From NCBI GenBank assembly GCA_022571215.1, contig JACZYG010000002.1, positions 54,332 to 118,331 on the forward strand: a stretch of DNA of 64,000 bases. The letters run 5' to 3'. The notes under the pieces are model-generated. The model ran no database searches. It had not been told where the DNA came from and saw only the letters and a program-made list of their open reading frames with translations. The stretch is from Fidelibacterota bacterium (lineage in GTDB: Bacteria; Fidelibacterota; SORT01). The position numbers and the translations under genes were made by a program. Positions within the stretch are counted from its first letter, which is position 1; each line of letters opens with the position of its first letter. Of this stretch, positions 1-54,076 are shown piece after piece.

Positions 1-1
1 G

Positions 2-259
2 TACTATATCAGCAGAGCGGGTGGTTTCCATGTAGATGGGGATAAGGGAAATGCTCGTATATTAAGAGCAGATGGAAGTGTAGTAAATTCTAAGAAACGA
101 TTTTGGTGGGATCCGAAGGTGCACGAGGGCGACGAAATTATTATTTCATTGAAAGAAGAGAAGGAGCCGTTTGACTTTTCCGAATTCTTAACGGAGACAT
201 CAAGTATAGTTGCAAGTCTGGCAACTATAGCATTCGTCATTGTTCAATCGACTAAATAG
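2..259 (+). CDS. Partial (5-prime truncated by window edge) polysaccharide export protein C-terminus, Wza/SLBB-like
   Basis: Frame 2 is open from the window edge to TAG at 257-259 and reads ...GFHVDGDKGNARILRADGSVVNSKKRFWWDPKVHEGDEIIISLKE... ending in a hydrophobic tail; resembles C-termini of polysaccharide export proteins. Not in the ORF track because it has no start codon in the window. Confidence 0.4.
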   Translation, partial: YYISRAGGFHVDGDKGNARILRADGSVVNSKKRFWWDPKVHEGDEIIISLKEEKEPFDFSEFLTETSSIVASLATIAFVIVQSTK

Positions 260-329
260 TACTGTCAGGTTCCTGTAAATTCTGCAAAATAAATCGTAAG
301 ACAATTCGATTTCAGTCGGACAAGGTGAA

Positions 330-753
330 CTTTTGAAAGCGTTAGCTATCGGTGGGATGGGGTTCTTGGGCTCGCAAAAGCAAAAAACGCGACATTCGTT
401 CTCGCTTCAACATCTGAGGATTACGGTGATGGAACCCAAACCCGAAACTTCGCTTATATTGATGATACGGTTGACGGTATTTTTAAACTAATGACCTCTA
501 AATATACCGATTTAATATTGGCAATCCGGAAGAGATAAGTATTTTGGAGTTTGTCAAGCGGATAGAAGAAGCGACGAACACTGAAGTGGAAATTAAGCTA
601 ATGCCCTTGCCCGAGGACGATCCGAAGGTAAGATGTCCGAATATCAGCAAGTCAAAAGAACTGCTCGGCTGGGAGCCCAAGATAGGTCTTGCTGAAGGTC
701 TGAAGAATACGATACCATTCTTTCGGGATAAGCTCTCCGAACCCGCGGTCTGA
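330..753 (+). pseudogene. Degraded NAD-dependent epimerase/dehydratase gene (UDP-glucuronate decarboxylase, UXS-like) with internal deletion and frameshift
   Basis: One frame reads ...GVLGLAKAKNATFVLASTSEDYGDGTQTRNFAYIDDTVDGIFKLMTSKYTD then hits a stop; a second frame continues FNIGNPEEISILEFVKRIEE...PDDPKVRCPNISKSKELLGWEPKIGLAEGLKNTIPFF (ORF 544-753). These are UXS-family motifs, but about 75-100 aa between STSEVYGD and YGDGxQTR and the whole N-terminal Rossmann region are missing. Confidence 0.55.
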
Positions 754-767
754 ATAATCGCTAATTC

Positions 768-1766
768 TTATTGTAACTTATCAATGATGGAATTGGTAAA
801 CTCTTTCAAGGAAGCCGTTCCCCCAAGGTTTGCAGGTTTGGTCCCGTCATTTAGATTTAAAGCGATCGATGAACGAATCTTCTCAGCTGCGTCGGTTTCA
901 CCTAAGTAATTAAGCAAGGCGATGGCTGACATCAGCAAGGGCAAGGGGCTGGCATCCGATGCGTTTGCCTTTTCGGGCGCTTTCCCATGCATAACTTCGA
1001 ATACGCGAATGTCGTCACCGATATTCACTCCGTAAACCGCGCTGATTCCTCCAACCATTCCTGTGATAAGATCGGATACAATGTCACCGTATAGATTACC
1101 CATCAGAAGTACATCAAATCGTTCAGGATTCATAACAAGATTCATACAACAGGCATCAATGATCATCGTGTCATGCTCAATATCAGGATATGTTTCGGCG
1201 ATTTCAGTTGCGACATCCAAGAATAAGCCGTCGGAAAGCTTCATGATATTCGCCTTATGAACGGTAGTGACCTTTTTTCTGCTTTTTTCTTTTGCGTATT
1301 GAAACGCAAAATTTGCGATTCGCTTTGAGGCATCTTCAGTTACGACTTTCATCATCTCCACGATATCAGGAGATACGTAATGCTCGATCCCGGAGTATTC
1401 TCCCTGAGTATTTTCTCTCACTACAATGATATCAATTTCATCATACCGGCTTTCGATTCCCGGAAAAAGCTTACACGGCCTCAAATTAGCATAAAGATTG
1501 AATGATTTTCTGAGAGTTACGGTTGGAGGCTCGTACGGAGCGCCAAGCGGAATATGTATCAGACCTTTAAGAGCAACTTTGTTTCGTTCAACAGAGTCCA
1601 TCAGCTCTTGAGGTAACGGTGTTCCGTGGGCTTTTAGCGCCTTTTCTCCGGATTCCTGCCAATCCCAATCTATCTTGGCTCCCGATGAGTCCACCACTCT
1701 TGTCACTTCATTAGCGATTTCAGGACCTATCCAGTCGCCGGGTATTATTGTTACTGTTTTACTCAT
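768..1766 (-). CDS. Isocitrate/isopropylmalate dehydrogenase family protein, second tandem copy (NAD-IDH-like subunit)
   Basis: 332 aa with VRENTQGEYSG, HKANIMKLSDG and GNLYGDIVSDL motifs; the N-terminal glycine motif is the variant GDWIGPE. 4-nt overlap with the upstream IDH gene. Confidence 0.8.
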   Translation of the reverse strand: MSKTVTIIPGDWIGPEIANEVTRVVDSSGAKIDWDWQESGEKALKAHGTPLPQELMDSVERNKVALKGLIHIPLGAPYEPPTVTLRKSFNLYANLRPCKLFPGIESRYDEIDIIVVRENTQGEYSGIEHYVSPDIVEMMKVVTEDASKRIANFAFQYAKEKSRKKVTTVHKANIMKLSDGLFLDVATEIAETYPDIEHDTMIIDACCMNLVMNPERFDVLLMGNLYGDIVSDLITGMVGGISAVYGVNIGDDIRVFEVMHGKAPEKANASDASPLPLLMSAIALLNYLGETDAAEKIRSSIALNLNDGTKPANLGGTASLKEFTNSIIDKLQ

Positions 1767-2761
1767 AATGATTCGATAATGGCCCTGGTGAATTCTTTCG
1801 TACCGGATTTACCACCCAGGTCACCTGTTCTGACTTTTCCTTCTTCGAGCACCTTATAGGCCGCATCTCTAATACGATTTCCGGCGGCATGTTCTCCGAG
1901 ATACTCAAGCATTAAAACCGCTGATAGAACGGCTGCAAGCGGATTTGCTAAATCCTTACCCGCGATATCGGGAGCGCTGCCATGGACTGGCTCAAAAACA
2001 GCATAATCTTTTCCAATATTTGCTCCGGGCACAACTCCGAGTCCCCCTACTAATCCGCTTGTCAAATCGCTTATGATGTCACCGTACAAATTACCCATTA
2101 CAAGCAGATCAAATTGTGAGGGGTCAGTTACAAGCTGCATTGAGAGGTTATCAATTGCGACTTCGTCATATTCAATAAACGGATACTTAGCGGCAATTTT
2201 TCTGATTTCTTCGAGAAACAAGCCGTCAGATTTCTTCATTACCGCCGCTTTGTGCACAGCCGTGACTTTTCTTCTGCCATGATTTCGGCAGTAATCAAAT
2301 GCAAATCTGCCTATCGCATTGCAAGCATTTCGCGAGATGACTTTCAAGCTGGTAACAACTCCTTCCACGACCTGATGCTCCAATCCTGAATAAAGACCTT
2401 CAGTATTCTCTCTAACGACTACAAGGTCGACGTTTTGGTATCTTGTAACTATTCCGGGAAGATTTATGACCGGTCTGATACAGGCGCTAAGATTTAGTTT
2501 TTGACGCAGGCTTACATTTGCGGAACGAAATCCTTTTCCTACAGGCGTTGTTACAGGTCCTTTTAAGGCTACTTTTGTTTTCTTAATTGAATTTATAGTA
2601 TCTTCAGGTACCGTTTCGCCGAACTTATCAACTGCTTCCTGCCCAACTATCGCTTTATCCCATCTGATATCCACGCCGGAGGCATCGAGAATTTCAACGG
2701 CAGAGCCCATAACTTCAGGACCGATACCGTCTCCTTCGATAAGAGTAATATGATAATTCAC
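1763..2761 (-). CDS. Isocitrate dehydrogenase (NAD-dependent type), first tandem copy
   Basis: GDGIGPEV, KGPVTTPVGKGFRSANVSLRQKLNL, VRENTEGLYSG and GNLYGDIISDL motifs. The longest ORF runs to 2848 but would overlap the upstream thioesterase by 85 nt; a GTG at 2759-2761 giving VNYHITLIEGDGIGPE is the more plausible start. Confidence 0.8.
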   Translation of the reverse strand: MNYHITLIEGDGIGPEVMGSAVEILDASGVDIRWDKAIVGQEAVDKFGETVPEDTINSIKKTKVALKGPVTTPVGKGFRSANVSLRQKLNLSACIRPVINLPGIVTRYQNVDLVVVRENTEGLYSGLEHQVVEGVVTSLKVISRNACNAIGRFAFDYCRNHGRRKVTAVHKAAVMKKSDGLFLEEIRKIAAKYPFIEYDEVAIDNLSMQLVTDPSQFDLLVMGNLYGDIISDLTSGLVGGLGVVPGANIGKDYAVFEPVHGSAPDIAGKDLANPLAAVLSAVLMLEYLGEHAAGNRIRDAAYKVLEEGKVRTGDLGGKSGTKEFTRAIIESL

Positions 2762-2763
2762 AG

Positions 2764-3177
2764 CTACTTCCCCGACTGATATGTTCCCATCGCTTCGATA
2801 AGCTCCGGGGGGAATTTTACAGGTTTTCCCGAATCCAAATTTATGCAAACATGGTGAGTATGTCCCTCAGATACTTTTTTACCGGCTACTTCCATTGAAT
2901 ATAATATTTTAAAAGAGGTCCTTCCAAAATCATCTACTCCAAGGTTAAGCTCCAATAGATCATCAAATTTTACCGGCGCGAAATATCTAAGCCTGCTTTC
3001 CACCAATACCAATCCCAAGCCCATATCCATCACTGATTTGTAAGAAAGACCGCTTGCTTCCAAGAGCTCGACTCTTGCCTTTTCACAGTAATAATAAAAA
3101 TTTGAATGATGCAGAACGCCATGCATGTCAATATCACGGAAAGCCACGTTATATTTTGCCTGGAAAGGAAATTTCAT
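2764..3177 (-). CDS. Acyl-CoA thioesterase, hotdog fold (YbgC/4HBT-like)
   Basis: 137 aa; N-terminal FxxxVxFRDIDMHGVLHHSNFYYYCEKAR pattern typical of 4HBT thioesterases. Confidence 0.75.
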   Translation of the reverse strand: MKFPFQAKYNVAFRDIDMHGVLHHSNFYYYCEKARVELLEASGLSYKSVMDMGLGLVLVESRLRYFAPVKFDDLLELNLGVDDFGRTSFKILYSMEVAGKKVSEGHTHHVCINLDSGKPVKFPPELIEAMGTYQSGK

Positions 3178-3905
3178 CCTAAAATCCCCGCAACGATAAA
3201 TAGATCATAAAAACTGTGAGTATACGCTGTAACTCCAAAACCTCTAAAAACGTAGAGAACGGACAGTATAGTTCCTCCTATGAACCGAAAAACAAAAGTG
3301 CTGACGAGAAACGGCTCACCAAGGAATCCTATGTAGTGGAAACCGGAAAATATCAAAGAGGAAAGAAAAATAGAGATTATTACGGATGTAATCTTTTTCA
3401 ATCCGACAACTTTGGTGAAAATGAGTACGAAAAGAGATATCAGCACGACCCTGAATAAAAATTCCTCGTAAACGCCTGCGCCCAATGATAAAACGAGTTG
3501 GTGTTTCCAGCTGAAAGTGGGAGGAAATTGAAGCAAAATACTTGTTATCCTGCTTACTACAAAGCCGAACAGAAATGCGTAAAGAATAGATTCACCGAGC
3601 ATCAGCAGAAGATAGCGATATTGCAGAATAAACTCTTTATCCCTCAATTCATGAATGAAAAGTCCGATAAGAATAGCGAGAACCAGTATGCTGAATCCAT
3701 AGAAGCCTGCGACACCAAATATATTGAATATCTGTTTCGTGACAACGTCAGCTCCGTTTCGAAGGCCTTCAATATCCGACTTATTCATTACGAAAGCCGC
3801 TATCTCGTAAGTCATCATAAGAGGAACAACGAACAAGAACGAATAAAAAGGCGATTTTGTAGCCCTTGAGTATTCTTTATATTGTTCCCAGTAATTTTGC
3901 ATCAT
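3174..3905 (-). CDS. CPBP family intramembrane metalloprotease (CAAX protease-like)
   Basis: 243 aa polytopic membrane protein with EEFLFR (EExxxR) and FSGFHY (FxxxH) motifs. Confidence 0.75.
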   Translation of the reverse strand: MMQNYWEQYKEYSRATKSPFYSFLFVVPLMMTYEIAAFVMNKSDIEGLRNGADVVTKQIFNIFGVAGFYGFSILVLAILIGLFIHELRDKEFILQYRYLLLMLGESILYAFLFGFVVSRITSILLQFPPTFSWKHQLVLSLGAGVYEEFLFRVVLISLFVLIFTKVVGLKKITSVIISIFLSSLIFSGFHYIGFLGEPFLVSTFVFRFIGGTILSVLYVFRGFGVTAYTHSFYDLFIVAGILG

Positions 3906-3930
3906 CGAATCATATTAAAATTTTCTGAAA

Positions 3931-5730
3931 TTACTCATCCAACTGCAATACCGCAATGAACGCTTCTTGAGGAACCTGCACACTGCCGACCAATTTCATA
4001 CGTTTTTTCCCCGCTTTTTGTTTTTCTAACAGCTTCCGCTTACGGGTTATATCGCCGCCGTAACATTTGGCTGTAACATTTTTTCTGAGCGCGCTCACGG
4101 TCTGACGCGCGATAATCTTGCTTCCGACAGAACCTTGCAAGGCTATCGGGAACATCTGTCGAGGAATAATCGTTTTAAGTTTTTCGGTTATTCTTCTGCC
4201 CCAGTCGTATGCTTTATCCTTGTGGACGATAATCGAAAAGGCGTCAATTTTATCTCCGTTGATTAAAATATCAAGCCGGACGAGTTTGCCTTTCCGATAC
4301 CCTATATAATCATAATCGAGTGAAGCGTAACCTCTGCTGACAGATTTAAGACGGTCATAAAAATCAAACAGCACTTCCATTAGAGGTAACTCGTAAACGA
4401 TTTCAACCCGATTGGAATTGAGATAGTCGGTGGATTTGTAAGTGCCTCTCTTATCCTGAGCGAGTTTCATAATAGCGCCGATATATTCTGAGGGAGTTAC
4501 AATTGCCGCCCTGATGAACGGCTCTTTAATATTTTCTATATCGCCCGCTGGTGGGAGTTTTACGGGATTATCTATTTCAAAGGACGTACCGTTATGCAAC
4601 TCCACAAGATATTTGGCATTCGGAACGGTCGCGATGATATCCATATCGAATTCACGGGACAATCGTTCCTGAACTATCTCCATGTGGAGCATCCCGAGGT
4701 ATCCGCACCTAAAGCCGAACCCGAGAGCTTCGGATGATTCAGGCTCAAAAGAGATAGCCGCGTCATTGAGCTGTAATTTTTCTAAAGCAATCCTTAATTT
4801 GCTATAATCTTCGTTGTCAATCGGAAAAATACCGCTGAATACCATCGGCTTGGACTCTTTGTAACCGGGAAGAGCTTCTTTTGCCGGATTATCTGCGGAA
4901 GTAACAGTATCTCCGACTTTAGTATCCTTCACATTCTTTACTCCTGCGATCAGATAGCCGACATCACCCGCATTAAGTTCCTTTTTCTTTATCCTTTTCA
5001 TCCGCAGTATGCCGATCTCGAGCGCCTCAAGGGTTTTGTTGTTATTGAAGAACTTTACACGCTGTCCTTCGACTAACTTACCATCAAAGACTCGTATATA
5101 AGCAATAGCTCCGCGGTATTTATCAAATGTTGAATCGAATATTATCGCTCTAAGCGGTTTAGAGGTATCTGATTCTGGAGGGGGAACCAACTCTACTACG
5201 GCTTCAAGAATTTCAGCGACACCTTCACCGGTTTTAGCGCTGATAAGAAATATATCCTCTTCTTTGCAACCGAGCAATTCGATGATCTGGTCAATGGCAA
5301 CTTCAACCTCTTTAGCGCCCAAATCAATTTTGTTGATGATAGGTATGATTTTCAGTCCGCCGTCAACAGCCAGGTAGGCATTACTGACGGTTTGCGCCTC
5401 AACTCCCTGCGCGGCATCCACAAGAAGAAGCGCTCCCTCGCAAGCTGCGAGGCTGCGGCTGACTTCATACGAAAAATCTACATGACCCGGGGTATCTATA
5501 AGGTTGAAGATATATTTTTTGCCGTCATCGGCGCTGTAATCCATAGTTATAGCATGCGCTTTTATCGTAATGCCGCGTTCTCTTTCGATATCCATGTCAT
5601 CAAGCACCTGATCCTTCATCTCTTTTTCGCTCAAGGTATGGGTCAGCTCGAGAAAGCGGTCGGCAAGTGTCGATTTGCCATGATCGATATGGGCTATAAT
5701 GCAGAAATTTCGTATGTTTTCAGCCTTCAT
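3931..5730 (-). CDS. lepA: Elongation factor 4 (LepA)
   Basis: 599 aa; translational GTPase G-domain AHIDHGKSTL, DTPGHVDF, NKID, with LepA-specific C-terminal domain. Confidence 0.95.
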   Translation of the reverse strand: MKAENIRNFCIIAHIDHGKSTLADRFLELTHTLSEKEMKDQVLDDMDIERERGITIKAHAITMDYSADDGKKYIFNLIDTPGHVDFSYEVSRSLAACEGALLLVDAAQGVEAQTVSNAYLAVDGGLKIIPIINKIDLGAKEVEVAIDQIIELLGCKEEDIFLISAKTGEGVAEILEAVVELVPPPESDTSKPLRAIIFDSTFDKYRGAIAYIRVFDGKLVEGQRVKFFNNNKTLEALEIGILRMKRIKKKELNAGDVGYLIAGVKNVKDTKVGDTVTSADNPAKEALPGYKESKPMVFSGIFPIDNEDYSKLRIALEKLQLNDAAISFEPESSEALGFGFRCGYLGMLHMEIVQERLSREFDMDIIATVPNAKYLVELHNGTSFEIDNPVKLPPAGDIENIKEPFIRAAIVTPSEYIGAIMKLAQDKRGTYKSTDYLNSNRVEIVYELPLMEVLFDFYDRLKSVSRGYASLDYDYIGYRKGKLVRLDILINGDKIDAFSIIVHKDKAYDWGRRITEKLKTIIPRQMFPIALQGSVGSKIIARQTVSALRKNVTAKCYGGDITRKRKLLEKQKAGKKRMKLVGSVQVPQEAFIAVLQLDE

Positions 5731-5834
5731 GCTTTCCTGTGTTTAATTGATCTCAAATATTAAGTCATGTAGAGGGCGAAGTCAATGTAAGACATAATCC
5801 TGATTTCCGGATGACAATTAAGGTATTTGAACGC

Positions 5835-7157
5835 TCAGTTCTTAGGCTTGAAAAGAAGCGTTATAGGAACCCCGAAAAAACCGAAAGCGGCGCGCAAGTT
5901 ATGCTCAAGAAATCGTTTATAGTTTTCTTTTATACCTTTCGGGTAATTGGTAAAAAAAACAAAAGTGGGAGGAATCGCGTTAACCTGATTGACGAACGTT
6001 ATCTTCACAAAACGATTATTATAACTCGGAGGTGATGTATGTTCAACCGTTGCGGTCAACCAGTCATTAAGCGGTTTGGTTTTTATGCTTTTGCGGGATT
6101 CATTGTAAATTTTGGAGACCAGGTCAAGAATCTTATGAATCCGCTGACCGTCGAGAGCGGAAATAAATTCTATCGGATAGCTTTCCAATAGAGGTAGCCT
6201 ATATTTGAGCTCTTCCAACCACTCTTTATGAGTACGGTTGGTTTTTTCTATCAGGTCCCATTTATTTACGGCAACCACGAGACACTTTCTCCTATCCAAT
6301 GCCTCAACAATTATACTTACGTCCTGTTTATCCATACCGCGGGTCACATCGAGCATAGCGACTACCACATCCGCTCTGTCCATCGCTCTCCGCGCCCTAA
6401 CGGTACTGTAAAATTCAACGGCGTCCTTGATCTTCGCTTTTCTTCTGATTCCCGCTGTATCGATTAAAGTATAGGTCTTTCCCTTATAGGAGACTACACT
6501 GTCGGCGCTGTCCCGGGTTGTGCCGGGAATGTCGGTAACTATTTGTCTCTCTTTATTCAAAAGTCTGTTGACAAGCGAGGATTTTCCGACATTAGGAACG
6601 CCGACAATTGCGATCTTTATCCCCTCATCCTCTTCAACAGAGGGCGCAGGTGACAGTTTGAAGTGGCTTACCGCCGCTTCTAAAAGATCGCCGGTTCTTC
6701 TACCCGATTCAGCGGAAACAGGAAATGGTTCGCCAAGACCGAGCTTCATAAAATCGTATATTTCCGGCTCTCGTGTTTCGTCGTCAACTTTATTGACGAC
6801 GAGTATGACTTTTTTTGATTGCTTCAAAATGACTTTTGCGATGTCCTCATCACCTGCCGTGATCCCTGTTTCTGAATCCACCACAAACAATACGAGTTCC
6901 GACTCATTAATCGCTTCTAACGCTTGCTCGCGAACAGACGAGAGGATAACCTCATCGGATTTTGAATCATATCCTCCGGTATCCACAAGAATAAAATCAT
7001 GTCCTGACCAGGAAACTTTCCCGTACTTCCTGTCCCGTGTGACCCCTTCGGTGGAATCTACTATAGCGTCCCGCCGTCCTACAAACCGGTTAAAAAGGGT
7101 GGATTTACCGACATTAGGTCTGCCGATTATGGAGACTATGGGAATAGATTGAGTCAA
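5835..7157 (-). CDS. der: Ribosome biogenesis GTPase Der (EngA)
   Basis: 440 aa with two tandem GTPase domains (GRPNVGKSTLFN and GVPNVGKSSLVN) plus KH-like C-terminus. Confidence 0.95.
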   Translation of the reverse strand: MTQSIPIVSIIGRPNVGKSTLFNRFVGRRDAIVDSTEGVTRDRKYGKVSWSGHDFILVDTGGYDSKSDEVILSSVREQALEAINESELVLFVVDSETGITAGDEDIAKVILKQSKKVILVVNKVDDETREPEIYDFMKLGLGEPFPVSAESGRRTGDLLEAAVSHFKLSPAPSVEEDEGIKIAIVGVPNVGKSSLVNRLLNKERQIVTDIPGTTRDSADSVVSYKGKTYTLIDTAGIRRKAKIKDAVEFYSTVRARRAMDRADVVVAMLDVTRGMDKQDVSIIVEALDRRKCLVVAVNKWDLIEKTNRTHKEWLEELKYRLPLLESYPIEFISALDGQRIHKILDLVSKIYNESRKSIKTKPLNDWLTATVEHTSPPSYNNRFVKITFVNQVNAIPPTFVFFTNYPKGIKENYKRFLEHNLRAAFGFFGVPITLLFKPKN

Positions 7158-7162
7158 AACAG

Positions 7163-8443
7163 CTAACTATAAAGCGAGTGAAAATCGTTGTTATAGACCT
7201 GAACCGGCAGACCGCATACTTTTGATATATCCTCAGGACGCATATTATCGAGAAAGAATCCGTCACTGTTCAATATACGCGGAGGTAGAAATACTTCGCC
7301 GATAGGATCGCCTTCCTGAAGAGTTCTGATCAGGTCCTGCGCGGAAAGTAATCCCGCGATTGTAACCGATTCGCCTAAAAATGTGTTTTTCGCCACAAGC
7401 AATTTGACCCTGAGGTTTTCAATTTTTTCCAAAGCGGGCAAGAGCTGCTCATTCAGTATTCCCTCCGCCAACGTGCCCGTAACCAAAGTTATCTCTTTCG
7501 GCTCATTCAAGCGATCGGGAAACTTCGTTTTAGCTTTGTCGAGTTCACTAATAAATTCCCGGACCAAACCGATACCGTTATCCAATTGAGGGAATTCATC
7601 GTAATATTCTTCTTCCGGAACAGGCTCGCCAGCCATGATATACCATTCGTCGGAAAGATAAACGAATCGTTTCCCGTCGGAGCGTGGGAATTCAGTATCC
7701 CATTTGGCTCCGTTTTTCAACATTTCACGGGCATAGTCGGGCGTAACGGGATCTATTTTAGTCAGCCCGTCCCTGTGTTTCGTCAGTCCGATAGGAACCA
7801 CAGCCATAGAGCGGACGTTTTTCCTGTAATTCCAGATATCCTTTATGGTATTTTCGAGAATATCACCGTCATTCATGCCGGGGCAGAGAACGACCTGCGA
7901 GTGCATCTCAATATTATTCTCATCGAGATAAGCGATTTTTTTCAGAATATCATCATCAAAATCTATTCCGAGCATGAATTTACGTGTTTCGGGATCGGTC
8001 ACGTGTATCGATATATAAATAGGGCTGAGCCGTTGCCTGACGATTCGTTCAAGCTCTTTCCACGAAGTATTCGTCAGGGTTACAAAGTTACCATGCAGGA
8101 AGGAGAGACGATAATCTCCGTCCCTGAAATAAAGAGAAAGCCGCATACCCGCGGGGAGTTGATCTACATAGCAGAAAACGCATTTGTTGCAGCACGATTT
8201 ATATTGCTTCGGGACAAAGGAGATACCCATATCGTCATCGGGATGTTTCTCTATCTCGAAGGAAACTTCCTGATTGTTGCGTTTGATAACGACATCAACG
8301 GAATCATCCGTAGCCAAAAACCGGTAATCGATGATGTCGCTGACGCCGCATCCGTTCACGCTAACGAGTTTATCACCCGGCTCTATGCCGACTTCGGAAG
8401 CTATACTGTCTTTTTCTACATCTTTTATTTCAATCAAAACCAA
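7163..8443 (-). CDS. DUF512 radical-SAM-like protein with N-terminal PDZ domain
   Basis: 426 aa; cysteine motif CxxxCxxC in CCNKCVFC; position immediately upstream of der is typical for this family. Confidence 0.7.
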   Translation of the reverse strand: MVLIEIKDVEKDSIASEVGIEPGDKLVSVNGCGVSDIIDYRFLATDDSVDVVIKRNNQEVSFEIEKHPDDDMGISFVPKQYKSCCNKCVFCYVDQLPAGMRLSLYFRDGDYRLSFLHGNFVTLTNTSWKELERIVRQRLSPIYISIHVTDPETRKFMLGIDFDDDILKKIAYLDENNIEMHSQVVLCPGMNDGDILENTIKDIWNYRKNVRSMAVVPIGLTKHRDGLTKIDPVTPDYAREMLKNGAKWDTEFPRSDGKRFVYLSDEWYIMAGEPVPEEEYYDEFPQLDNGIGLVREFISELDKAKTKFPDRLNEPKEITLVTGTLAEGILNEQLLPALEKIENLRVKLLVAKNTFLGESVTIAGLLSAQDLIRTLQEGDPIGEVFLPPRILNSDGFFLDNMRPEDISKVCGLPVQVYNNDFHSLYS

Positions 8444-8648
8444 TTGTCCTTTCTATCGACAATAGATCAAATTTGCCATTCATTCATTGTGCAGCCTGCT
8501 AAGTAAACGATTTATCCGCTAATTAGCAAACAATATTCACTTTTATTGACCGATTTTAAAGGAAAAAGTTAAAGAAAGGCGCTTTCGGCGCACTTGTAAC
8601 TATCCCCTATGTTTATTATATTTAGAAGCTTAGAAAAGATGAAAAATA

Positions 8649-8664
8649 GCGCCGACAGGGCGCT
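8649..8664 (+). other. Perfect 6-bp stem hairpin (AGCGCC-gaca-GGCGCT) in the aconitase 5-prime leader
   Basis: Inverted repeat read directly about 20 nt upstream of the aconitase start; function unknown. Confidence 0.3.
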
Positions 8665-8684
8665 GAATATAGAAAGAAGGAATT

Positions 8685-10613
8685 ATGGGGTTAACTTTAG
8701 CGGAAAAAATAATTAACGAGCATATTGTTGAGGGAGAGCCGGTCAAAGGCTCGGAGATCGGAATAAAAATTGACCAAACCCTCACTCAGGATGCCACGGG
8801 GACTATGGCATATCTCCAATTTGAGGCGATGGGGCTGGAAAGAGTAAAGACCGAGTTGTCGGTAAGTTATGTAGATCATAATATGCTGCAAACGGATTTT
8901 CGCAACGCCGATGACCACGCATATTTGAAATCTGTTGCCGCAAAATACGGAATATATTTCTCAAAACCGGGTAACGGTATCTGTCATCAGGTACACAGGG
9001 AACGATTCGGAATTCCGGGGAAGACCCTTCTCGGCAGTGACTCGCATACTCCGACAGGTGGCGGACTCGGGATGATTTCAATAGGAGCTGGCGGGCTTGA
9101 CGTGGCGGTGGCAATGGGCGGCGGTCCGTTTTTCCTGAAATATCCCGATATTATAGGCGTAAAACTGACTGGTGAGCTCCAGCCGTTCGTAAACGCCAAA
9201 AATGTCATCTTCAAACTGTTGGAGATTCTCACCGTAAAAGGCGGAGTAGGTAAAGTATTGGAATATTTCGGACCGGGAGTTAAAGCCCTCTCCGCTGGCG
9301 ATAGGTTCGCCATTGCGAACATGGGTACGGAAGTTGGAGCGACAACATCAATCTTCCCGTCGGATGAAAATACGAAACGGTTTCTCGTTGCGCAGGACAG
9401 GGGCGATGTCTGGATAGAGCTTTCCGCGGATGATGGAGCAGAATACGATGAGATAATTGAAATAGACTTGAGCGTGTTGGAACCGTTGGTCGCGGAACCG
9501 GGCAGTCCGGACAACATCGTAGATGTCAAATCTCTTGTAGGAAAGAAAGTTGCGCAAGTGCTGATAGGAACCTGCACAAATTCATCATACGAAGATATGA
9601 TGACAGTGGCGAAAATGCTTGAAGGGAAGAAGATACATCCGGGAGTTGACATGGGAGTCGCGCCCGGTTCAAAACAGGTTTTCCAGATGATAGCGGAGAG
9701 TGGAGGATTGGGCATGATAATCTCATCGGGTTCAAGAATACTCGAATCCGCCTGCGGTTTCTGCATCGGAATGGGTCAGGCTCCGCCGACAGGAGGAATT
9801 TCTCTCCGAACCGGCAACAGGAATTTCCCCGGGAGAAGCGGTACTCAGGGCGATAATATCTATCTCGTGAGTCCTGAAATAGCCGCCGCTTCCGCGTTAG
9901 CGGGTGAGTTCGTTGACCCAACGACAATTGACCAGGTGATAGAGATAGAGCCGCCGACGCAATATACGATTGACGATTCGGGTATCATCCCTCCGATAGA
10001 AGATTCTTCGGGAGTTGAGATATTGCGGGGACCGAATATAAAGGAAGTTCCGGTGAAAGAGCCTCTTACCGACGCTATTAAGAGCGAAGTAATCCTTAAG
10101 GTCGGTGACAATATTACCACCGACCATATTTTGCCGGCAGGCGCGAAAGTTCTTCCGCTTCGGAGTAACATCCCGGCGATCGCGGAATTCGTCTATGTGA
10201 ACGTTGATGACACTTTCGCCTCGCGGGCAAAGGCGGCGGGCAGCGGTATCATAGTCGGAGGGACGAATTATGGTCAGGGTTCCTCCCGTGAGCATGCGGC
10301 TCTCGCTCCGATGTATCTCGGAATCAATGCCGTCATAGTCAACGATTTCGCTCGAATCCACAGAGCTAACCTGATAAATTTCGGAATCCTTCCGCTTCTG
10401 ATGGACGCTTCCGATAACGATAAGATAGAGCAGGGTGACGATCTCGAAATATCCGATATTCTTGCCACACTTGAGTCCGGCAGCGATTTCACGGTTAAGA
10501 ATTTGACCAAAGGGATAGAGTTCAAAGTCAAAAGCGATATGACCGACCTTGAGAAGAATATCCTGCGGGCAGGCGGAAAACTCGCCTATACTCGTTCACA
10601 GAATCAAAATTGA
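8685..10613 (+). CDS. Aconitase family hydratase (aconitate hydratase-like, fused large and swivel domains)
   Basis: 642 aa; aconitase/IPM-isomerase-like N-terminus (LAEKIINEHIVEG...QDATGTMAYLQFEAMGL) and C-terminal swivel domain; near other TCA genes. Confidence 0.8.
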   Translation: MGLTLAEKIINEHIVEGEPVKGSEIGIKIDQTLTQDATGTMAYLQFEAMGLERVKTELSVSYVDHNMLQTDFRNADDHAYLKSVAAKYGIYFSKPGNGICHQVHRERFGIPGKTLLGSDSHTPTGGGLGMISIGAGGLDVAVAMGGGPFFLKYPDIIGVKLTGELQPFVNAKNVIFKLLEILTVKGGVGKVLEYFGPGVKALSAGDRFAIANMGTEVGATTSIFPSDENTKRFLVAQDRGDVWIELSADDGAEYDEIIEIDLSVLEPLVAEPGSPDNIVDVKSLVGKKVAQVLIGTCTNSSYEDMMTVAKMLEGKKIHPGVDMGVAPGSKQVFQMIAESGGLGMIISSGSRILESACGFCIGMGQAPPTGGISLRTGNRNFPGRSGTQGDNIYLVSPEIAAASALAGEFVDPTTIDQVIEIEPPTQYTIDDSGIIPPIEDSSGVEILRGPNIKEVPVKEPLTDAIKSEVILKVGDNITTDHILPAGAKVLPLRSNIPAIAEFVYVNVDDTFASRAKAAGSGIIVGGTNYGQGSSREHAALAPMYLGINAVIVNDFARIHRANLINFGILPLLMDASDNDKIEQGDDLEISDILATLESGSDFTVKNLTKGIEFKVKSDMTDLEKNILRAGGKLAYTRSQNQN

Positions 10614-10625
10614 AAGGCTGATGAA

Positions 10626-11144
10626 ATGGAACTGAGCGGAAAAAAAGTTTTGATACCTATCGGTCCGGATTATCAGGACCTGGAAGTATGGTATCCGAAA
10701 CTTCGATTGACGGAAGCGGGAGCGGATGTCACATGCGCCGGAATCGGCGACAAAACGTATTACGGTAAAAACGGTTATCCTATAGACGTGGACGTTCAGA
10801 TAGAAGAATGCGCGGCGGACGATTTTGACGCGGTTATCATACCGGGCGGATGGGCGCCGGATAAGATCCGTATGAACAAACACGCCGTAGACATCGTCAG
10901 GACTATGTATAAAGAGGGCAAGGTAGTGGCTTCTATATGCCATGCGGGATGGGTGCTCGTTTCTGCGGGCATTCTTGAAGGTAAAAAAGCCACCTCATAT
11001 ATTGCGATAAAAGATGATATGATCGCCGCGGGAGCGGATTGGTCGGACGCCGAGGTAGTCGTTGACGGGAATTTGATAACTTCACGTAAGCCGGATGACC
11101 TTCCCGCGTTTTGCAGAGAGATAATAAGGCAATTGAGCGGTTAG
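10626..11144 (+). CDS. DJ-1/PfpI family protein
   Basis: 172 aa with nucleophile-elbow Cys in ICHAGWVL and the IIPGGWAPD motif. Confidence 0.85.
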   Translation: MELSGKKVLIPIGPDYQDLEVWYPKLRLTEAGADVTCAGIGDKTYYGKNGYPIDVDVQIEECAADDFDAVIIPGGWAPDKIRMNKHAVDIVRTMYKEGKVVASICHAGWVLVSAGILEGKKATSYIAIKDDMIAAGADWSDAEVVVDGNLITSRKPDDLPAFCREIIRQLSG

Positions 11145-14221: not shown

Positions 14222-14485
14222 CTGCGATTTTATAATTATTTGTTACTATTGATTTTGTGCATACAAAAAAATATGATTTCTTGATGTAGTAGCAACCGAT
14301 TATCTTATTTTAATACTTTGACTTTCTCTCCTAAATCGAATTGCAAATACCCATATCACAACTCCATAAACAGAAATTCCCATAATTTCCCTTGCCAATT
14401 AGATGGAGCCTAAGTATATTCAATTAAGACAAAAGTTGTCGTAATTAGATAAGTCAGATAATAACACTGACTTAAATGAACTGTA

Positions 14486-15722: not shown

Positions 15723-17106
15723 TATAGGAACAGAAGAATATAAATACGGATTTTCTGACGACGTCAAACCGGAGATAAAGTTCGAAAAAGGTCTGTCACG
15801 GCAAACCGTTGAAGATATATCCAACATAAAGAACGAACCGGGATGGATGACAGAGACCCGTCTCAAGGCATATGAAATATTTTTGGAAAAGCCGATGCCC
15901 GAATGGGGCGCCGACCTTTCCGATATAGATTTCGATGATATTATCTATTTCGTCCGCGCGTCGGACAGGAAGATGACAAATTGGGATGATGTGCCTGCTG
16001 AGATCAAAGAGACTTTCGAAAAGCTCGGCATACCTGAATCCGAACGGAAGTTCCTCGCGGGAGCGGAAGCTCAGTATGACAGCGAATCCGTATACGGCGC
16101 TCTTCAGGGCGAATGGGAAAAGCAGGGCGTTATCTTTGTTGACACGGATACCGCATTGAGGGAGCATGAGAAGCTCCTGAGAAAATATTTCGGATCGGTC
16201 GTTCCGGCCACCGACAATAAACTTGCGGCTCTCAATACCGCTGTCTGGAGCGGCGGAAGTTTCCTTTATATACCTAAAGGCGTTCGGGTCGGCTTGCCGT
16301 TGCAGGCGTATTTCCGTATCAATACCCAAAATATGGGTCAGTTTGAACGCACGATGATAATCGCCGATGAAGGTTCTAACGTTCAATATATTGAAGGTTG
16401 CACCGCTCCGACATATACGACCAATTCACTGCATTCAGCGGTCGTGGAGATCATCTGCAAGAAGGATTCACGCGTAAGGTACACCACGCTGCAAAACTGG
16501 TCAGGCAATGTTTACAATCTCGTGACCAAACGCGCTCAAGCATACGAGAACGCTACAATGGAATGGATAGACGCGAATCTCGGAAGTAAAGTAACGATGA
16601 AATATCCTTCGGTTTACCTGATGGAACGCGGCGCCAAGGCGGATGTAATTTCTATCGCATTCGCGAACACCGGTCAGCACCAGGATGTCGGCTCAAAGGT
16701 CGTGCATCTGGCTCCTTATACCACTTCGAAGATCCTTTCCAAATCTATCAGCAAGGGGAAGGGCAGGTCAACATATCGCGGACTTGTGAAGATACATGAA
16801 GGTATGGAAGGATGCAAAAGCAACGTCAATTGTGACGCTTTGCTGCTCGATGAGGCGTCCGCAACCGATACTTATCCGTACATCGAGATAGAAGACCCTA
16901 CCGCCGCGATAGAGCATGAAGCTACGGTTTCGAAGCTCTCCGATGAGCAGATATTCTATCTTCAGCAGAGAGGCGTTCCCGAGGATGAAGCGCGGAATAT
17001 GATAATAAACGGTTTTATAGAGCCGTTTACAAAATTACTGCCGCTGGAGTATGCGGTTGAGATGAACAGGCTCATCGAACTTCAAATGGAAGGTTCGGTA
17101 GGATAA
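15703..17106 (+). CDS. sufB: Fe-S cluster assembly protein SufB
   Basis: 467 aa; conserved SufB core ([33 protein letters not shown]). Confidence 0.95.
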
Positions 17107-24770: not shown

Positions 24771-24956
24771 AGATAAGATGCATGACCTCCGAATTCAGCT
24801 GTCCATTCGGAATTTCTCTGTTCGATGGAAAAAATTCTTTAGTAGGAATTGTTTTTTTGCAGAAACAATAAAAACTATTCATGCCGGATTACATGAAGAG
24901 ATCAAACATTGGAAAATTGTTTGATAAAACTGATTAGTCGTAAAAGGTGACCTAAT

Positions 24957-25018
24957 CTCCTCCTCCCCCTTAAAAAGGAGGGGAATTAAAATGTGCGGTC
25001 AGGGCTTGCCCTAACCGC
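24957..25018 (+). repeat. Degenerate copy of a dispersed hairpin module (CCCCCT...AGGAGGGG hairpin followed by ATGTGCGGTCAGGG)
   Basis: Sequence similarity to the elements at 32154-32234 and 53895-53962. Confidence 0.45.
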
Positions 25019-25151
25019 CACATAATTTTATTGTCATTGCGCGAGGAGCAGTAAAGCTGCGACGCGACAATCTCAGAAATTAGTTTAGCACCAGAATTTT
25101 GGTGCAACCAGCCTGCATCAGTCGGGCAGGTTCTGCCCGCGCTCATAAAAT

Positions 25152-25198
25152 AACCACCCCTGCCTCTTCGAGGCTTCCCCTCCTTGAAAAGGAGGGGA
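25152..25198 (+). repeat. 47-nt double-hairpin module: AACCACCCC, hairpin GCCTC/GAGGC, hairpin TCCCCTCCT/AGGAGGGGA
   Basis: Same length and architecture as 32022-32068; the first stem differs by compensatory changes while the second stem is identical. Confidence 0.55.
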
Positions 25199-25343
25199 TG
25201 AAAAATCCTGTAAGCTACTCTGAATTCAAGATATAATATTAGTAGAATGACTTGCTGAATCAGCAATAAATCAGGTAATATTTCACTATGAAAAGACCCG
25301 TTTCAATATGAAACTTAAACGTAATACTGAATAATAATGCCGC

Positions 25344-25372
25344 TTGACAATCAGTAACGATTGAAATATATT
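25344..25372 (+). promoter_or_regulatory. Candidate sigma-70 promoter: TTGACA, 17-nt spacer, TATATT
   Basis: Consensus -35 at 25344-25349 and near-consensus -10 at 25367-25372 with a 17-nt spacer, about 24 nt upstream of the 25396 start codon. Confidence 0.5.
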
Positions 25373-31842: not shown

Positions 31843-31930
31843 AAGAGTATTATGGAGCGCTCCGAAAGTATTACCGTTGTATAATCTGACTTTAAGATAG
31901 ATATTAAACGGTATCTACCAGCTTGTAAAA

Positions 31931-31960
31931 AACCCTCAATTTTAGTTGGGGGTTTTTCTT
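31931..31960 (+). terminator. Rho-independent terminator downstream of lon
   Basis: AACCCTCAA-ttttag-TTGGGGGTT stem (9 bp with one G-U pair in RNA) followed by TTTCTT. Confidence 0.6.
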
Positions 31961-32021
31961 GATATCACGGTTCATTCCGCTGGAGATTCCCGCCGAACAG
32001 ACTCTGACGGCATTTCAATTC

Positions 32022-32068
32022 AACCACCCCTCCGCTTTCAGCGGCGTCCCCTCCTTGTTAGGAGGGGA
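32022..32068 (+). repeat. 47-nt double-hairpin module: AACCACCCC, hairpin CCGCT/AGCGG, hairpin TCCCCTCCT/AGGAGGGGA
   Basis: Paralogue of 25152-25198 with covarying first stem. Confidence 0.55.
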
Positions 32069-32153
32069 TATCTCAAGGAGGCAATACGTGGCGAGGTCTA
32101 TTTAAAGTCCCGTGGATTAAGGAGAATGCGGATAACTGATTTCTAACTCTCGA

Positions 32154-32234
32154 CACACCCCGCCCTGCGGGCACCCCTCTTTTTAGAGGGGAACTTACAT
32201 CCCATCTTCGATGGGATATGTGCGAGTCAGGATT
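32154..32234 (+). repeat. Composite repeat: degenerate double-hairpin module (GCCC/GGGC and CCCCTCT/AGAGGGG) plus ATCCCATC/GATGGGAT hairpin plus conserved TGTGCGAGTCAGGATT box
   Basis: The 16-nt box at 32219-32234 is identical to 53931-53946; the module architecture matches the other copies. Confidence 0.5.
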
Positions 32235-32320
32235 TACCCGCTTGGCTTCAGCCGGACAGACTCTGACGGAACGAAACCTTAAAACCATTAAAATGGTTCA
32301 AAATATTATACTTCTTTGGA

Positions 32321-32346
32321 TAACCCCTGGATTAATCCAGGGGTTA
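32321..32346. repeat. 26-bp perfect palindrome TAACCCCTGGATTAATCCAGGGGTTA
   Basis: Read directly; self-complementary over its full length. Confidence 0.6.
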
Positions 32347-32686
32347 ATAATATGTAATGTTACGAAAAACCGTTTTAACGGTTTTATTCAAAATTCTACA
32401 ACTCAGACATAGGTCTGGCGAGTCTTGAGTACATAATATGAAGGTGGATTATATGGAGTGCTCGAACGGAGTTCTTACGGAACATCAACTGTGTTGATGC
32501 GGCAATGACTCAGTCAAGGTACTCCAAAAGTATTACCATCGCAGTCCTGACAGTTGCAAAAGTTTCTTGTCATGACACCCTTAAAGAACTGATTCCACAG
32601 CTACCTTTTTATTGCTTTCAAGAGGCGTAAAATCTAAATTACGTTGTTACAGCAAAAGTTAATTTAATTATTTAAAGGTTTAAGAA

Positions 32687-42515: not shown

Positions 42516-42685
42516 TGTTAAAATTTATTATATTTTTGGCAGTTGGTTGGTTTTTACTGAAAATCTTCAGGGGAGCGAAATTTCTCAAAAAAAATAAAGT
42601 CACGACACCTGAGAGAGATAAAAAGAATAAATTAAAATATAATAAAGGTGACATCGAAGATGCAGATTTCAAGGACTTGGATTGA
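42515..42685 (+). CDS. Small membrane-anchored protein (56 aa), unannotated in the ORF track
   Basis: ATG overlaps the dNK stop (TGATG); MLKFIIFLAVGWFLLKIF hydrophobic helix followed by a Lys-rich tail. Confidence 0.35.
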   Translation: MLKFIIFLAVGWFLLKIFRGAKFLKKNKVTTPERDKKNKLKYNKGDIEDADFKDLD

Positions 42686-42709
42686 GTGAATAACATAAAG
42701 GGATAACGT

Positions 42710-53894: not shown

Positions 53895-53962
53895 CCGGCT
53901 GCGAGGCTTTCCCTTAAGGGTAGAGAATCGTGTGCGAGTCAGGATTCATCCTGACCGCAAGA
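53895..53962 (+). repeat. Composite repeat: degenerate CGAGGCTTTCCCTTAAGGG module plus conserved TGTGCGAGTCAGGATT box with GTCAGGA-ttca-TCCTGAC hairpin
   Basis: The 16-nt box at 53931-53946 is identical to 32219-32234; the upstream part resembles CGAGGCTTCCCCTCCTT at 25169-25185. Confidence 0.5.
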
Positions 53963-54076
53963 GTATGTATTATTGGCATCGGGGCAAGTCCTGACTGCAC
54001 GGAATCCGCTCAATTGCAAGTTCGCTATGGCTTTAGTATATTCAAGCCTATTCCAATTTTAGAATAGAGGAGAGAT

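Follow-up and report, generated by a model that had tools for sequence, protein, structure and literature searches.

Intergenic hairpin-plus-box modules of a Fidelibacterota bacterium resemble REP/BIME repeats and recur across bacterial phyla and in phages

Introduction

The ends of IS200/IS605 insertion sequences are read as folded single-stranded DNA (ssDNA) by HUH/Y1 enzymes. Group 3 repetitive extragenic palindromes (REPs) are perfect palindromes of 5–8 bp with loops of 3–4 nt, in which a conserved motif precedes the stem by a few bases, and they are likewise read as ssDNA (PMC8266576). REP doublets forming hairpins (REPINs) are reported to be vertically inherited (bioRxiv 10.1101/2024.10.14.618302). 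Here we describe a family of small hairpin modules in a 64,000-nt stretch of DNA from a Fidelibacterota bacterium (GenBank assembly GCA_022571215.1, contig JACZYG010000002.1, positions 54,332 to 118,331 of the forward strand). We refer to this whole stretch as the window and give all coordinates as positions within it unless another contig is named. The modules were pointed out in a first-pass annotation made from the letters of the DNA and its open reading frames (ORFs). We favor, with moderate confidence, the reading that they are copies of a palindromic DNA repeat, neither coding nor autonomous, that resembles REPs and bacterial interspersed mosaic elements (BIMEs), and that they are arranged in mosaics with other small hairpin modules.

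Like the REPs, BIMEs and REPINs of Proteobacteria, which are mobilized by REP-associated tyrosine transposases (RAYTs), the modules are short intergenic palindromes, some perfectly paired and with 3-nt loops, that have a 5' motif and a stem-loop fold as ssDNA. They form mosaics with other motifs, exist in multiple copies and resemble one another within a genome, although doublets were seen here only in one phage contig. They differ from REPs in lacking GTAG; the motif is instead ACC[A/T]CCCC-T, three bases from the stem. No RAYT was found in the window or at the other loci, and a variable hairpin is nested inside the unit. Moreover, REPs are lineage-specific, but this core stays the same across at least 17 phyla and phages.

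Other described systems share some of these properties. The small dispersed repeats (SDRs) of cyanobacteria, reportedly the subject of work by Elhai et al. in 2008, are said to be mobile sequences of 21–27 nt that nest in carrier hairpins with the fold preserved. The nested hairpin-in-hairpin mosaics seen here are similar, but SDRs are described only in cyanobacteria. Miniature inverted-repeat transposable elements (MITEs) such as Correia/NEMIS, RUP and Nezha are also non-autonomous, intergenic and palindromic, and an 8-nt direct repeat bounds an indel at our locus. Unlike MITEs, however, the core unit is only ~35–50 nt, no parent insertion sequence is known for it, and the 184-bp indel block lacks terminal inverted repeats. 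The PeSL promoter/stem-loop cassettes, said to have been reported by Arbiol et al. in 2010, reportedly occupy intergenic regions of T4-type phages, are confined to one phage group and have a defined early promoter. Our element resembles them in forming repeated stem-loop cassettes in phage gaps but is shared with cellular genomes of many phyla. Finally, terminators and hairpins that mask a Shine–Dalgarno (SD) sequence, such as RNA thermometers and riboswitch expression platforms, have in common with the modules a GC-rich hairpin with one AGGAGG-like arm. The modules differ from these in having no U tract, in not lying at a ribosome-binding site, in being independent of orientation and in being conserved in sequence and not only in structure.

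Results

Two 47-nt elements in the window, A1 and A2 (Table 1), were said to share AACCACCCC followed by two hairpins. Re-reading of the sequence, shuffles and a covariance model all agree with this. The pattern CCCCTCCT-N3-6-AGGAGGGG has two matches in the window and none in 100 shuffles. When A1 and A2 were folded as ssDNA, both predicted hairpins formed in each element, with free energies of -14.4 and -14.6 kcal/mol (z = -4.5 and -5.5, respectively).

The covariance model was made from 47 copies, all from other organisms, and was searched against the 64-kb window. It recovered A1 (E = 1e-8), A2 (E = 7e-5) and a degenerate core copy, A3 (E = 0.004); beyond these three, nothing in the 64 kb scored below E = 0.05. 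Three degenerate copies had been proposed in the first-pass annotation. A3 stands by virtue of its E-value. The core of the composite module A4 is not significant by itself (E = 3.2), but A4 can be retained through its first hairpin, GCCCTGCGGGC, which lies beside a CACCCC box. We count A4 as a family member because a first hairpin next to this box recurs elsewhere, in identical form in Acidobacteriota and as GCCCCTGCGGGGC in a gammaproteobacterial chromosome. The third proposed copy, A5, is a weak hairpin that did not match the model, and we no longer regard it as a copy of the core. The report of an identical 16-nt box, TGTGCGAGTCAGGATT, at 32219 and 53931 was correct; it is exact at these two positions only, with 0.45 occurrences expected even when three mismatches are allowed. 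In the window, A1–A4 all have the same orientation, and there are no inverted doublets.

The core is widespread outside the window. When 185,579 species genomes were searched for TCCCCTCCTT-N2-6-AGGAGGGGA, there were matches at no fewer than 120 loci from at least 17 phylum-level groups. Bacteroidota account for ~31 of the loci among the matches listed, including cultured Hymenobacter. Further carriers belong to Balneolota, Ignavibacteriota, Calditrichota, Marinimicrobia, Zixibacteria, Nitrospinota, Nitrospirota, Planctomycetota (anammox bacteria), Acidobacteriota, Patescibacteria, Alpha-, Beta- and Gammaproteobacteria, Omnitrophota, Binatia, Thermodesulfobacteriota and Bdellovibrionota. Bin contamination cannot account for this spread, because cultured Hymenobacter and Rhodohalobacter, megabase contigs and closed chromosomes are among the carriers. 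The closed Acidobacteriota and Gammaproteobacteria chromosomes OY970352.1 and OZ244890.1 have the element, as do the Marinimicrobia assemblies GCA_022564305.1 and GCA_022563775.1. The proposal of a dispersed family of non-coding hairpin modules is supported.

Across phyla the core is almost identical, with a consensus of ~35 nt: (A)ACC[A/T]CCCC-T-NNN-TCCCCTCCTT-loop-AAGGAGGGGA. The palindrome formed by TCCCCTCCTT and AAGGAGGGGA is perfect over 10 bp, and the short loop is free in both sequence and length, ranging from 2 to 7 nt across copies. A ACCNCCCC box lies within 80 nt of 105 of the 129 core hairpins at the 120 loci among the matches listed, most commonly at a spacing of 4 nt, and T follows the box in all 49 of 49 copies. 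In 25 cases there is a second, inverted box, GGGG[A/T]GGT, downstream. The A/T (W) positions of the two outer boxes do not co-vary, and they are mismatched in about half of the two-box copies. The boxes are therefore read as sequence and not as a helix; a selected helix between them was considered and is unsupported given those mismatches. A duplex operator for a dimeric protein was rejected, as the 2–7 nt range of the loop speaks against it.

We ran the Rfam check that had been proposed. Rfam 15 gave no match at or above the gathering threshold in the window, and permissive scans of the two large intergenic regions gave only sub-threshold hairpin noise. One such hit, to the queA RNA motif at 24878–24935 (22.2 bits against a gathering threshold of 52.6; E = 0.085), is probably due to chance. 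That stretch, conserved among strains, directly follows the HdrD-like gene and contains two hairpins and then AAACUGAUU. Literature searches with DNA strings, with peptides from spurious translations and by topic yielded no description of the element. Within the curated RNA families and the literature searched, then, no match to the core-plus-box repeat was found.

The hairpin between box and core is variable. Box and core are separated by 9–60 nt in 44 copies, and in 33 of these the spacer is a gap-filling hairpin (p ≤ 0.05 against shuffles). The sequences of those 33 hairpins are nearly all different. In six Hymenobacter copies, five of eight pairs have changed on both sides and none on one side only; 97.9% of cells are paired, compared with 34–51% in slid controls. 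The stem pairs comprise 273 Watson–Crick pairs, 5 G-T pairs and 4 A-C mismatches, and loops of 3 nt occur in 22 of 31 hairpins. Compensatory change in the first hairpin, claimed for A1 and A2, is thus a general property of the family, as the gap-filling spacers and the Hymenobacter covariation attest. It had been attributed to selection on RNA or DNA structure. Selection on structure is upheld, and the choice between the two can be narrowed: since G-T pairs are nearly absent and there are no one-sided changes, the pattern is that of DNA palindromes rather than that of an RNA selected on one strand through G-U intermediates.

Copies within a genome are more alike than copies from different genomes, with the loop shared in 50% of within-genome pairs versus 1.4% of between-genome pairs. 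There are several loci per metagenome-assembled genome (MAG) among the matches listed, and one Nitrospinota MAG has a repeated unit of ~170 nt of which the core is only a part. At four Hymenobacter loci (L025, L095, L110 and L120) the core also lies within a longer unit, which starts with GTAGAACGATAAGC and often ends with ...CCGGTAGAACGA. From these unit ends it follows that a GTAG-containing direct repeat flanks the Hymenobacter element, which may hint at recognition of GTAG as in REPs, or else at a fixed target site.

The core is also present in 20 viral contigs. One of these is a phage contig that encodes a large terminase and a Mu-type portal (L144; IMGVR_UViG_3300008255_004712, 1-10966) and has 11 core hairpins in 11 kb. 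These form inverted doublets (hairpin-N4-GGGGAGGTC, ~37 nt, GACCACCCC-N4-hairpin) in nearly every gap between small genes, and in at least six gaps the doublet lies between a stop codon and the GAGGAG ribosome-binding site of the next gene. The arrangement is reminiscent of REPIN doublets. A search with the consensus element found no match in a phage collection and only chance-level pieces in a plasmid collection, although the BLAST low-complexity filter may hide matches. Phages may offer a vehicle for transfer between hosts, and a role in expression may also be possible.

Comparison of closely related strains shows how the modules turn over. The window belongs to a Marinimicrobia (SAR406) population. 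Contigs 99.5–99.9% identical to it come from deep-sea metagenomes, and a CcsA homologue that is 82% identical carries the label Candidatus Marinimicrobia. A 184-bp block that includes A3 (Table 1) is present in the window and absent from five strains that are ~99% identical across the intergenic region. It is bounded by an 8-nt direct repeat (ATTAGTCG at 24933–24940 and ATCAGTCG at 25117–25124), and at one empty site the sequence is ATTAGTCG. Terminal inverted repeats are absent from the block; deletion between the 8-nt repeats fits equally well. A search for other copies of it gave only the orthologous site in a related lineage. Because the right part of the block is also present in that lineage (L139, L141), the indel may be a loss between direct repeats and not a fresh insertion.

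A1 is present in all same-species strains and in part of the related lineage, where, among contigs whose CcsA proteins are identical, some have A1 and others have unrelated repeats in its place. In another lineage the intergenic region at A1 is wholly replaced, and the positions of copies are not conserved between related species. The loop of A2 (32056–32059 in the window) reads GTT, GAT, AGTA or GTA among near-identical strains. The third gap, with the element at 53931–54002, has the same length in six strains and no presence/absence variation. Other assemblies of the same population stop, or have 100-N scaffold gaps, exactly at the repeats. Whether the 184-bp indel is a loss or an insertion, the modules are dispensable and their turnover is fast.

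Some smaller differences among strains were also recorded. In strains that are otherwise 99.1–99.3% identical over the intergenic region with A2 (L123–L127), the run of G after CAATACGT (~32092–32096) is GG, GGGGG or GGGGGG, and there are five substitutions within 32053–32130. Strain L126 has an extra 21 nt, GCAGACGGATGTCGGGCTGGA, at ~16560–16600 of its contig (~31990 in the window), in the GTCAG-type box region upstream of A2. In another strain (L127, 13147–13824), an additional 225-aa ORF without a Pfam match lies between a sigma-54 activator and an NMT1-like gene. In the same neighborhood, the 82%-identity species (L134, 12702–14379) has an extracytoplasmic function (ECF) sigma factor, a 197-aa ORF and a DUF6249 gene.

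Copies show neither an association with particular genes nor a significant strand bias. Eighty of the 120 loci among the matches listed could be classified by gene context: 50 copies lie between tandem genes, 16 between convergent genes and 14 between divergent genes. The strand preference of the box (20 vs 11) is not significant. When the 556 ORFs lying within 3 kb of copies were compared all against all, no neighbor protein proved recurrent, with no family in more than 5 of the 120 loci, and no autonomous insertion sequence with shared ends turned up at these loci. In the window, modules occupy three of the ~10 intergenic gaps longer than 120 bp, all between plus-strand housekeeping genes (HdrD-like CCG protein/CcsA, Lon/YebC and phosphoribosyltransferase/acyl-CoA dehydrogenase). 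The gaps at 2849–3173, 14222–14485 and 42516–42709 were read and contain no modules. ORFs of 64–98 aa run across the mosaics at 24970–25266 (-), 31946–32146 (+), 32073–32288 (-) and 32218–32412 (+); they are almost certainly spurious.

Two described classes of intergenic hairpin were considered and rejected. Intrinsic terminators do not fit: there is no T run after A1–A4, terminator scans were silent on all four, and 14 of the 80 classifiable copies lie between divergent genes. Integron attC sites have core sites of the form RYYYAAC ... GTTRRRY and lie next to gene cassettes. The R''/L''...L'/R' core sites are not in our sequence, and the flanking genes are housekeeping genes. A canonical intrinsic terminator belonging to lon and a promoter-like site of ccsA do occur in the same gaps (Table 1), and the TTGACA-containing stretch of the latter is conserved in related species.

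The modules share their gaps with companion boxes and other hairpins. The GTCAGG-type box had been reported on the plus strand at 24991, 32219 and 53931. It is present there, but the distribution is wider, with boxes on the minus strand at 25117–25146, 31985–32013, 32251–32269 and 53984–54002. Since minus-strand boxes adjoin both A1 and A2, the arrangement common to the two elements is longer than the reported 47 nt. A Marinimicrobia single-cell contig (L012) has the same order of core, GGGGTGGTT, ~10 nt and a TGCGGTC box. The 19-nt sequence GCCGRACAGACTCTGACGG has two matches in the window, where 0.03 would be expected.

A second small hairpin family, TGTCATTGCGAGGAG...GACGAAGCAATC, is distinct from the CCCCTCC core and spans Omnitrophota, Bacteroidales and Marinimicrobia. 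We saw it in Omnitrophota (L050, ~331–400), in Bacteroidales (L106, ~4030), in L137 (~5190–5260) and in the window at 25031–25074. Two more perfect palindromes in the lon-yebC gap belong to neither family: TAACCCCTGGATT/AATCCAGGGGTTA at 32321–32346, with 13 bp and no loop, and AAAACCGTT/AACGGTTTT at 32366–32385.

Table 1. Positions and make-up of the modules and of neighboring features in the window.
Feature	Position	Strand	Composition	Basis or remark
A1	25152..25198	+	AACCACCCC-T-GCCTC TTC GAGGC-T-TCCCCTCCTT GAA AAGGAGGGGA; box AACCACCCC 25152-25160; variable hairpin GCCTC/GAGGC 25162-25174; core hairpin 25176-25198	Covariance model, inverted-repeat scan, ssDNA fold
A2	32022..32068	+	AACCACCCC-T-CCGCT TTC AGCGG-CG-TCCCCTCCT TGTT AGGAGGGGA	Covariance model, inverted-repeat scan, ssDNA fold
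A3, degenerate core copy	24948..24986	+	TGACCT..AATCTCCTCCT ... AGGAGGGGA	Covariance model, inverted repeat, fold
A4, composite	32153..32234	+	Box-like ACACACCCC 32153-32161; first hairpin GCCCTGCGGGC 32162-32172; core variant CCCCTCT TTTT AGAGGGG 32174-32191; hairpin ATCCCATC/GATGGGAT 32199-32217; box TGTGCGAGTCAGGATT 32219-32234	
A5, weak hairpin	53895..53925		Downstream box GTGCGAGTCAGG in common, core not	Unsupported as core copy
Polymorphic 184-bp block	24933..25116		A3, GTCAGG hairpin, TTGTCATTGCG module, GCACC hairpin	
GTCAGG-type box/hairpin adjoining A1	25117..25146	-	Minus strand ATGAGCGCGGGCAGAACCTGCCCGACTGAT; in other strains GTGCGGTCAGAAC	
GTCAG-type box adjoining A2	31985..32013	-	Minus strand ATGCCGTCAGAGTCTGTTCGGCGG; 19-nt core GCCGRACAGACTCTGACGG	
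Second copy of 19-nt repeat	32251..32269	-	GCCGRACAGACTCTGACGG	
GTCAGG-family hairpin	24989..25023	+	GTGCGGTCAGGGC TT GCCCTAACCGCCAC	Sequence, fold
GTCAGG-box element	53931..54002	+	Hairpin TGTGCGAGTCAGGAT TC ATCCTGACCGCA; inverted partner GCAAGTCCTGACTGCACGG at 53984-54002	
Second-family module	25031..25074	+	TTGTCATTGCGCGAGGAG...GCGACGCGACAATCTC	Also cross-phylum
Hairpin	25088..25105	+	GCACCAGAA/TTTTGGTGC	Inverted-repeat scan
Intrinsic terminator of lon	31928..31960	+	AAAAACCCTCAA/TTGGGGGTTTTT + T run	Canonical; upstream of A2
ccsA promoter-like site	25344..25372	+	TTGACA-17-TATATT	11/12 matches; downstream of A1

Discussion

We rank a REP-like DNA repeat first on the strength of its geometry: like REPs and IS200/IS605 ends, the element joins a perfectly paired stem and a short, free loop to a conserved motif that lies a fixed few bases away on the 5' side. 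The repeat is present in multiple copies, is amplified or homogenized within genomes, and differs between near-identical strains through gain, loss or replacement. Gene orientation makes no difference to it, and it is nearly unchanged across many phyla and some phages. By analogy with REP/RAYT systems and IS200/IS605 ends, we suggest that it would act as a folded single DNA strand, either as a hairpin or in a cruciform, and that it would be recognized through the hairpin together with the box at a fixed distance. A putative enzyme supplied in trans would do the copying. Effects on neighboring genes, for example as a hairpin at a transcript end, would be secondary.

Several observations weigh against this interpretation. 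A Y1 transposase was not found by tblastn with an IS200 TnpA query in the window or in ~1.3 Mb around copies, a weak negative, and no neighbor gene recurs around the copies. GTAG is absent next to the window copies and from the cross-phylum consensus, which has ACC[A/T]CCCC-T-NNN instead; GTAGAACGA was seen only in Hymenobacter copies, ~10 nt from the core. Because the test for GTAG failed, the element is not a REP in the strict sense, though its mode of action may be similar. Deletion may account for the 184-bp indel, the block being without terminal inverted repeats and present in the related lineage, and three to four copies in 64 kb is a modest number. A phylum-invariant core is also not what the REP model predicts if REPINs are vertically inherited, as is reported. 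Finally, the dense packing of hairpins in a phage genome that is itself compact hints at a role in expression.

That last point bears on the most serious of the rival explanations, which we nevertheless consider unlikely: that the modules are cis-acting RNA hairpins, serving as transcript-end stabilizers, RNase processing sites or factor-dependent terminators, comparable to REPs in E. coli messages or to the cassettes of T4-type phages. The doublets of the phage contig, placed between a stop codon and the next ribosome-binding site, are hard to square with junk in a compact genome. The folds are very stable, copies between tandem pairs of genes lie a median of 60 nt from the upstream stop versus 180 nt to the downstream start, and in one strain variant of A2 a C to T change would leave a G-U pair in place. 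However, G-U pairs are nearly absent overall, the hairpins are not followed by a T run, and the terminator scan does not call the modules. The lon gene has its own terminator ahead of A2, and the promoter-like site of ccsA comes only after A1. Divergent contexts are as common as convergent ones, with no significant strand bias. A generic stabilizer would also need only structure, whereas here the sequence itself is invariant across phyla.

The modules could instead be sites useful to the host, cruciforms or hairpins bound by a conserved DNA enzyme or nucleoid protein in the way that gyrase, IHF and Pol I bind BIMEs. This would suit a core and box that are invariant in many phyla, a DNA symmetry that makes orientation irrelevant, and a free loop length, as expected of an extruded hairpin. 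We find it more doubtful than an RNA role. Copies are dispensable and are replaced between near-identical strains, their positions are not conserved between related species, and their similarity within genomes points to copying and not to independent maintenance. No candidate protein is known.

The second hairpin had also been likened to SD-sequestering elements, and as a translational switch its CCUCCU arm would mask AGGAGG until a signal opened the hairpin. This is very improbable, and we have dropped the claim. The end of the AGGAGG arm is 198 nt from the next start codon in A1 (start 25396) and 619 nt in A2 (start 32687), with a promoter-like site between A1 and ccsA, and A2 lies downstream of the lon terminator. 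Both orientations occur, no conserved small ORF starts 5–10 nt after the AGGAGG arm, and in the phage contig the hairpin is followed by separate GAGGAG sites that belong to the genes. The element is also plentiful in Bacteroidota, where SD pairing is little used. What speaks for a switch is the sequence of the arms: the 3' arm, AAGGAGGGGA, is one base off the ideal SD, AAGGAGGUGA, and there is a likeness between the 5' arm and the 3' tail of 16S rRNA (CCCCUCCUU is one base off the tail CACCUCCUU). Lastly, chance resemblance among low-complexity C-rich and G-rich sequences has next to nothing to recommend it beyond the low complexity of the arms, given that 16 specified bases occurred together in 0 of 100 shuffles, that the box is linked to the hairpin in 105 of 129 cases at the loci among the matches listed, and that a model from other organisms found A1 at E = 1e-8.

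A REP/BIME-like repeat of this kind has practical consequences. The modules break metagenome assemblies, yield spurious small ORFs and false hypothetical proteins in MAGs, and mimic riboregulators. A covariance model for them would improve the annotation of uncultured genomes.

The invariance of the core from Marinimicrobia to Bacteroidota, Acidobacteriota, Planctomycetota, candidate-phyla-radiation bacteria, Proteobacteria and phages implies either frequent transfer between phyla or a conserved machine that has yet to be named. We put forward, as a tentative and rather unlikely reading, that this is a pan-bacterial mobile hairpin-plus-box element of ~35–50 nt, moved between phyla by phages and held constant by one widely conserved machine. 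That machine might be an unrecognized family of ssDNA transposases or nucleases, or the ribosome with its 16S tail, through mimicry of SD:anti-SD pairing. If this were true, the companion modules, namely TGTCATTGCGAGGAG... and the GTCAGG boxes, would form a cross-phylum toolkit of mini-elements from which intergenic mosaics are built.

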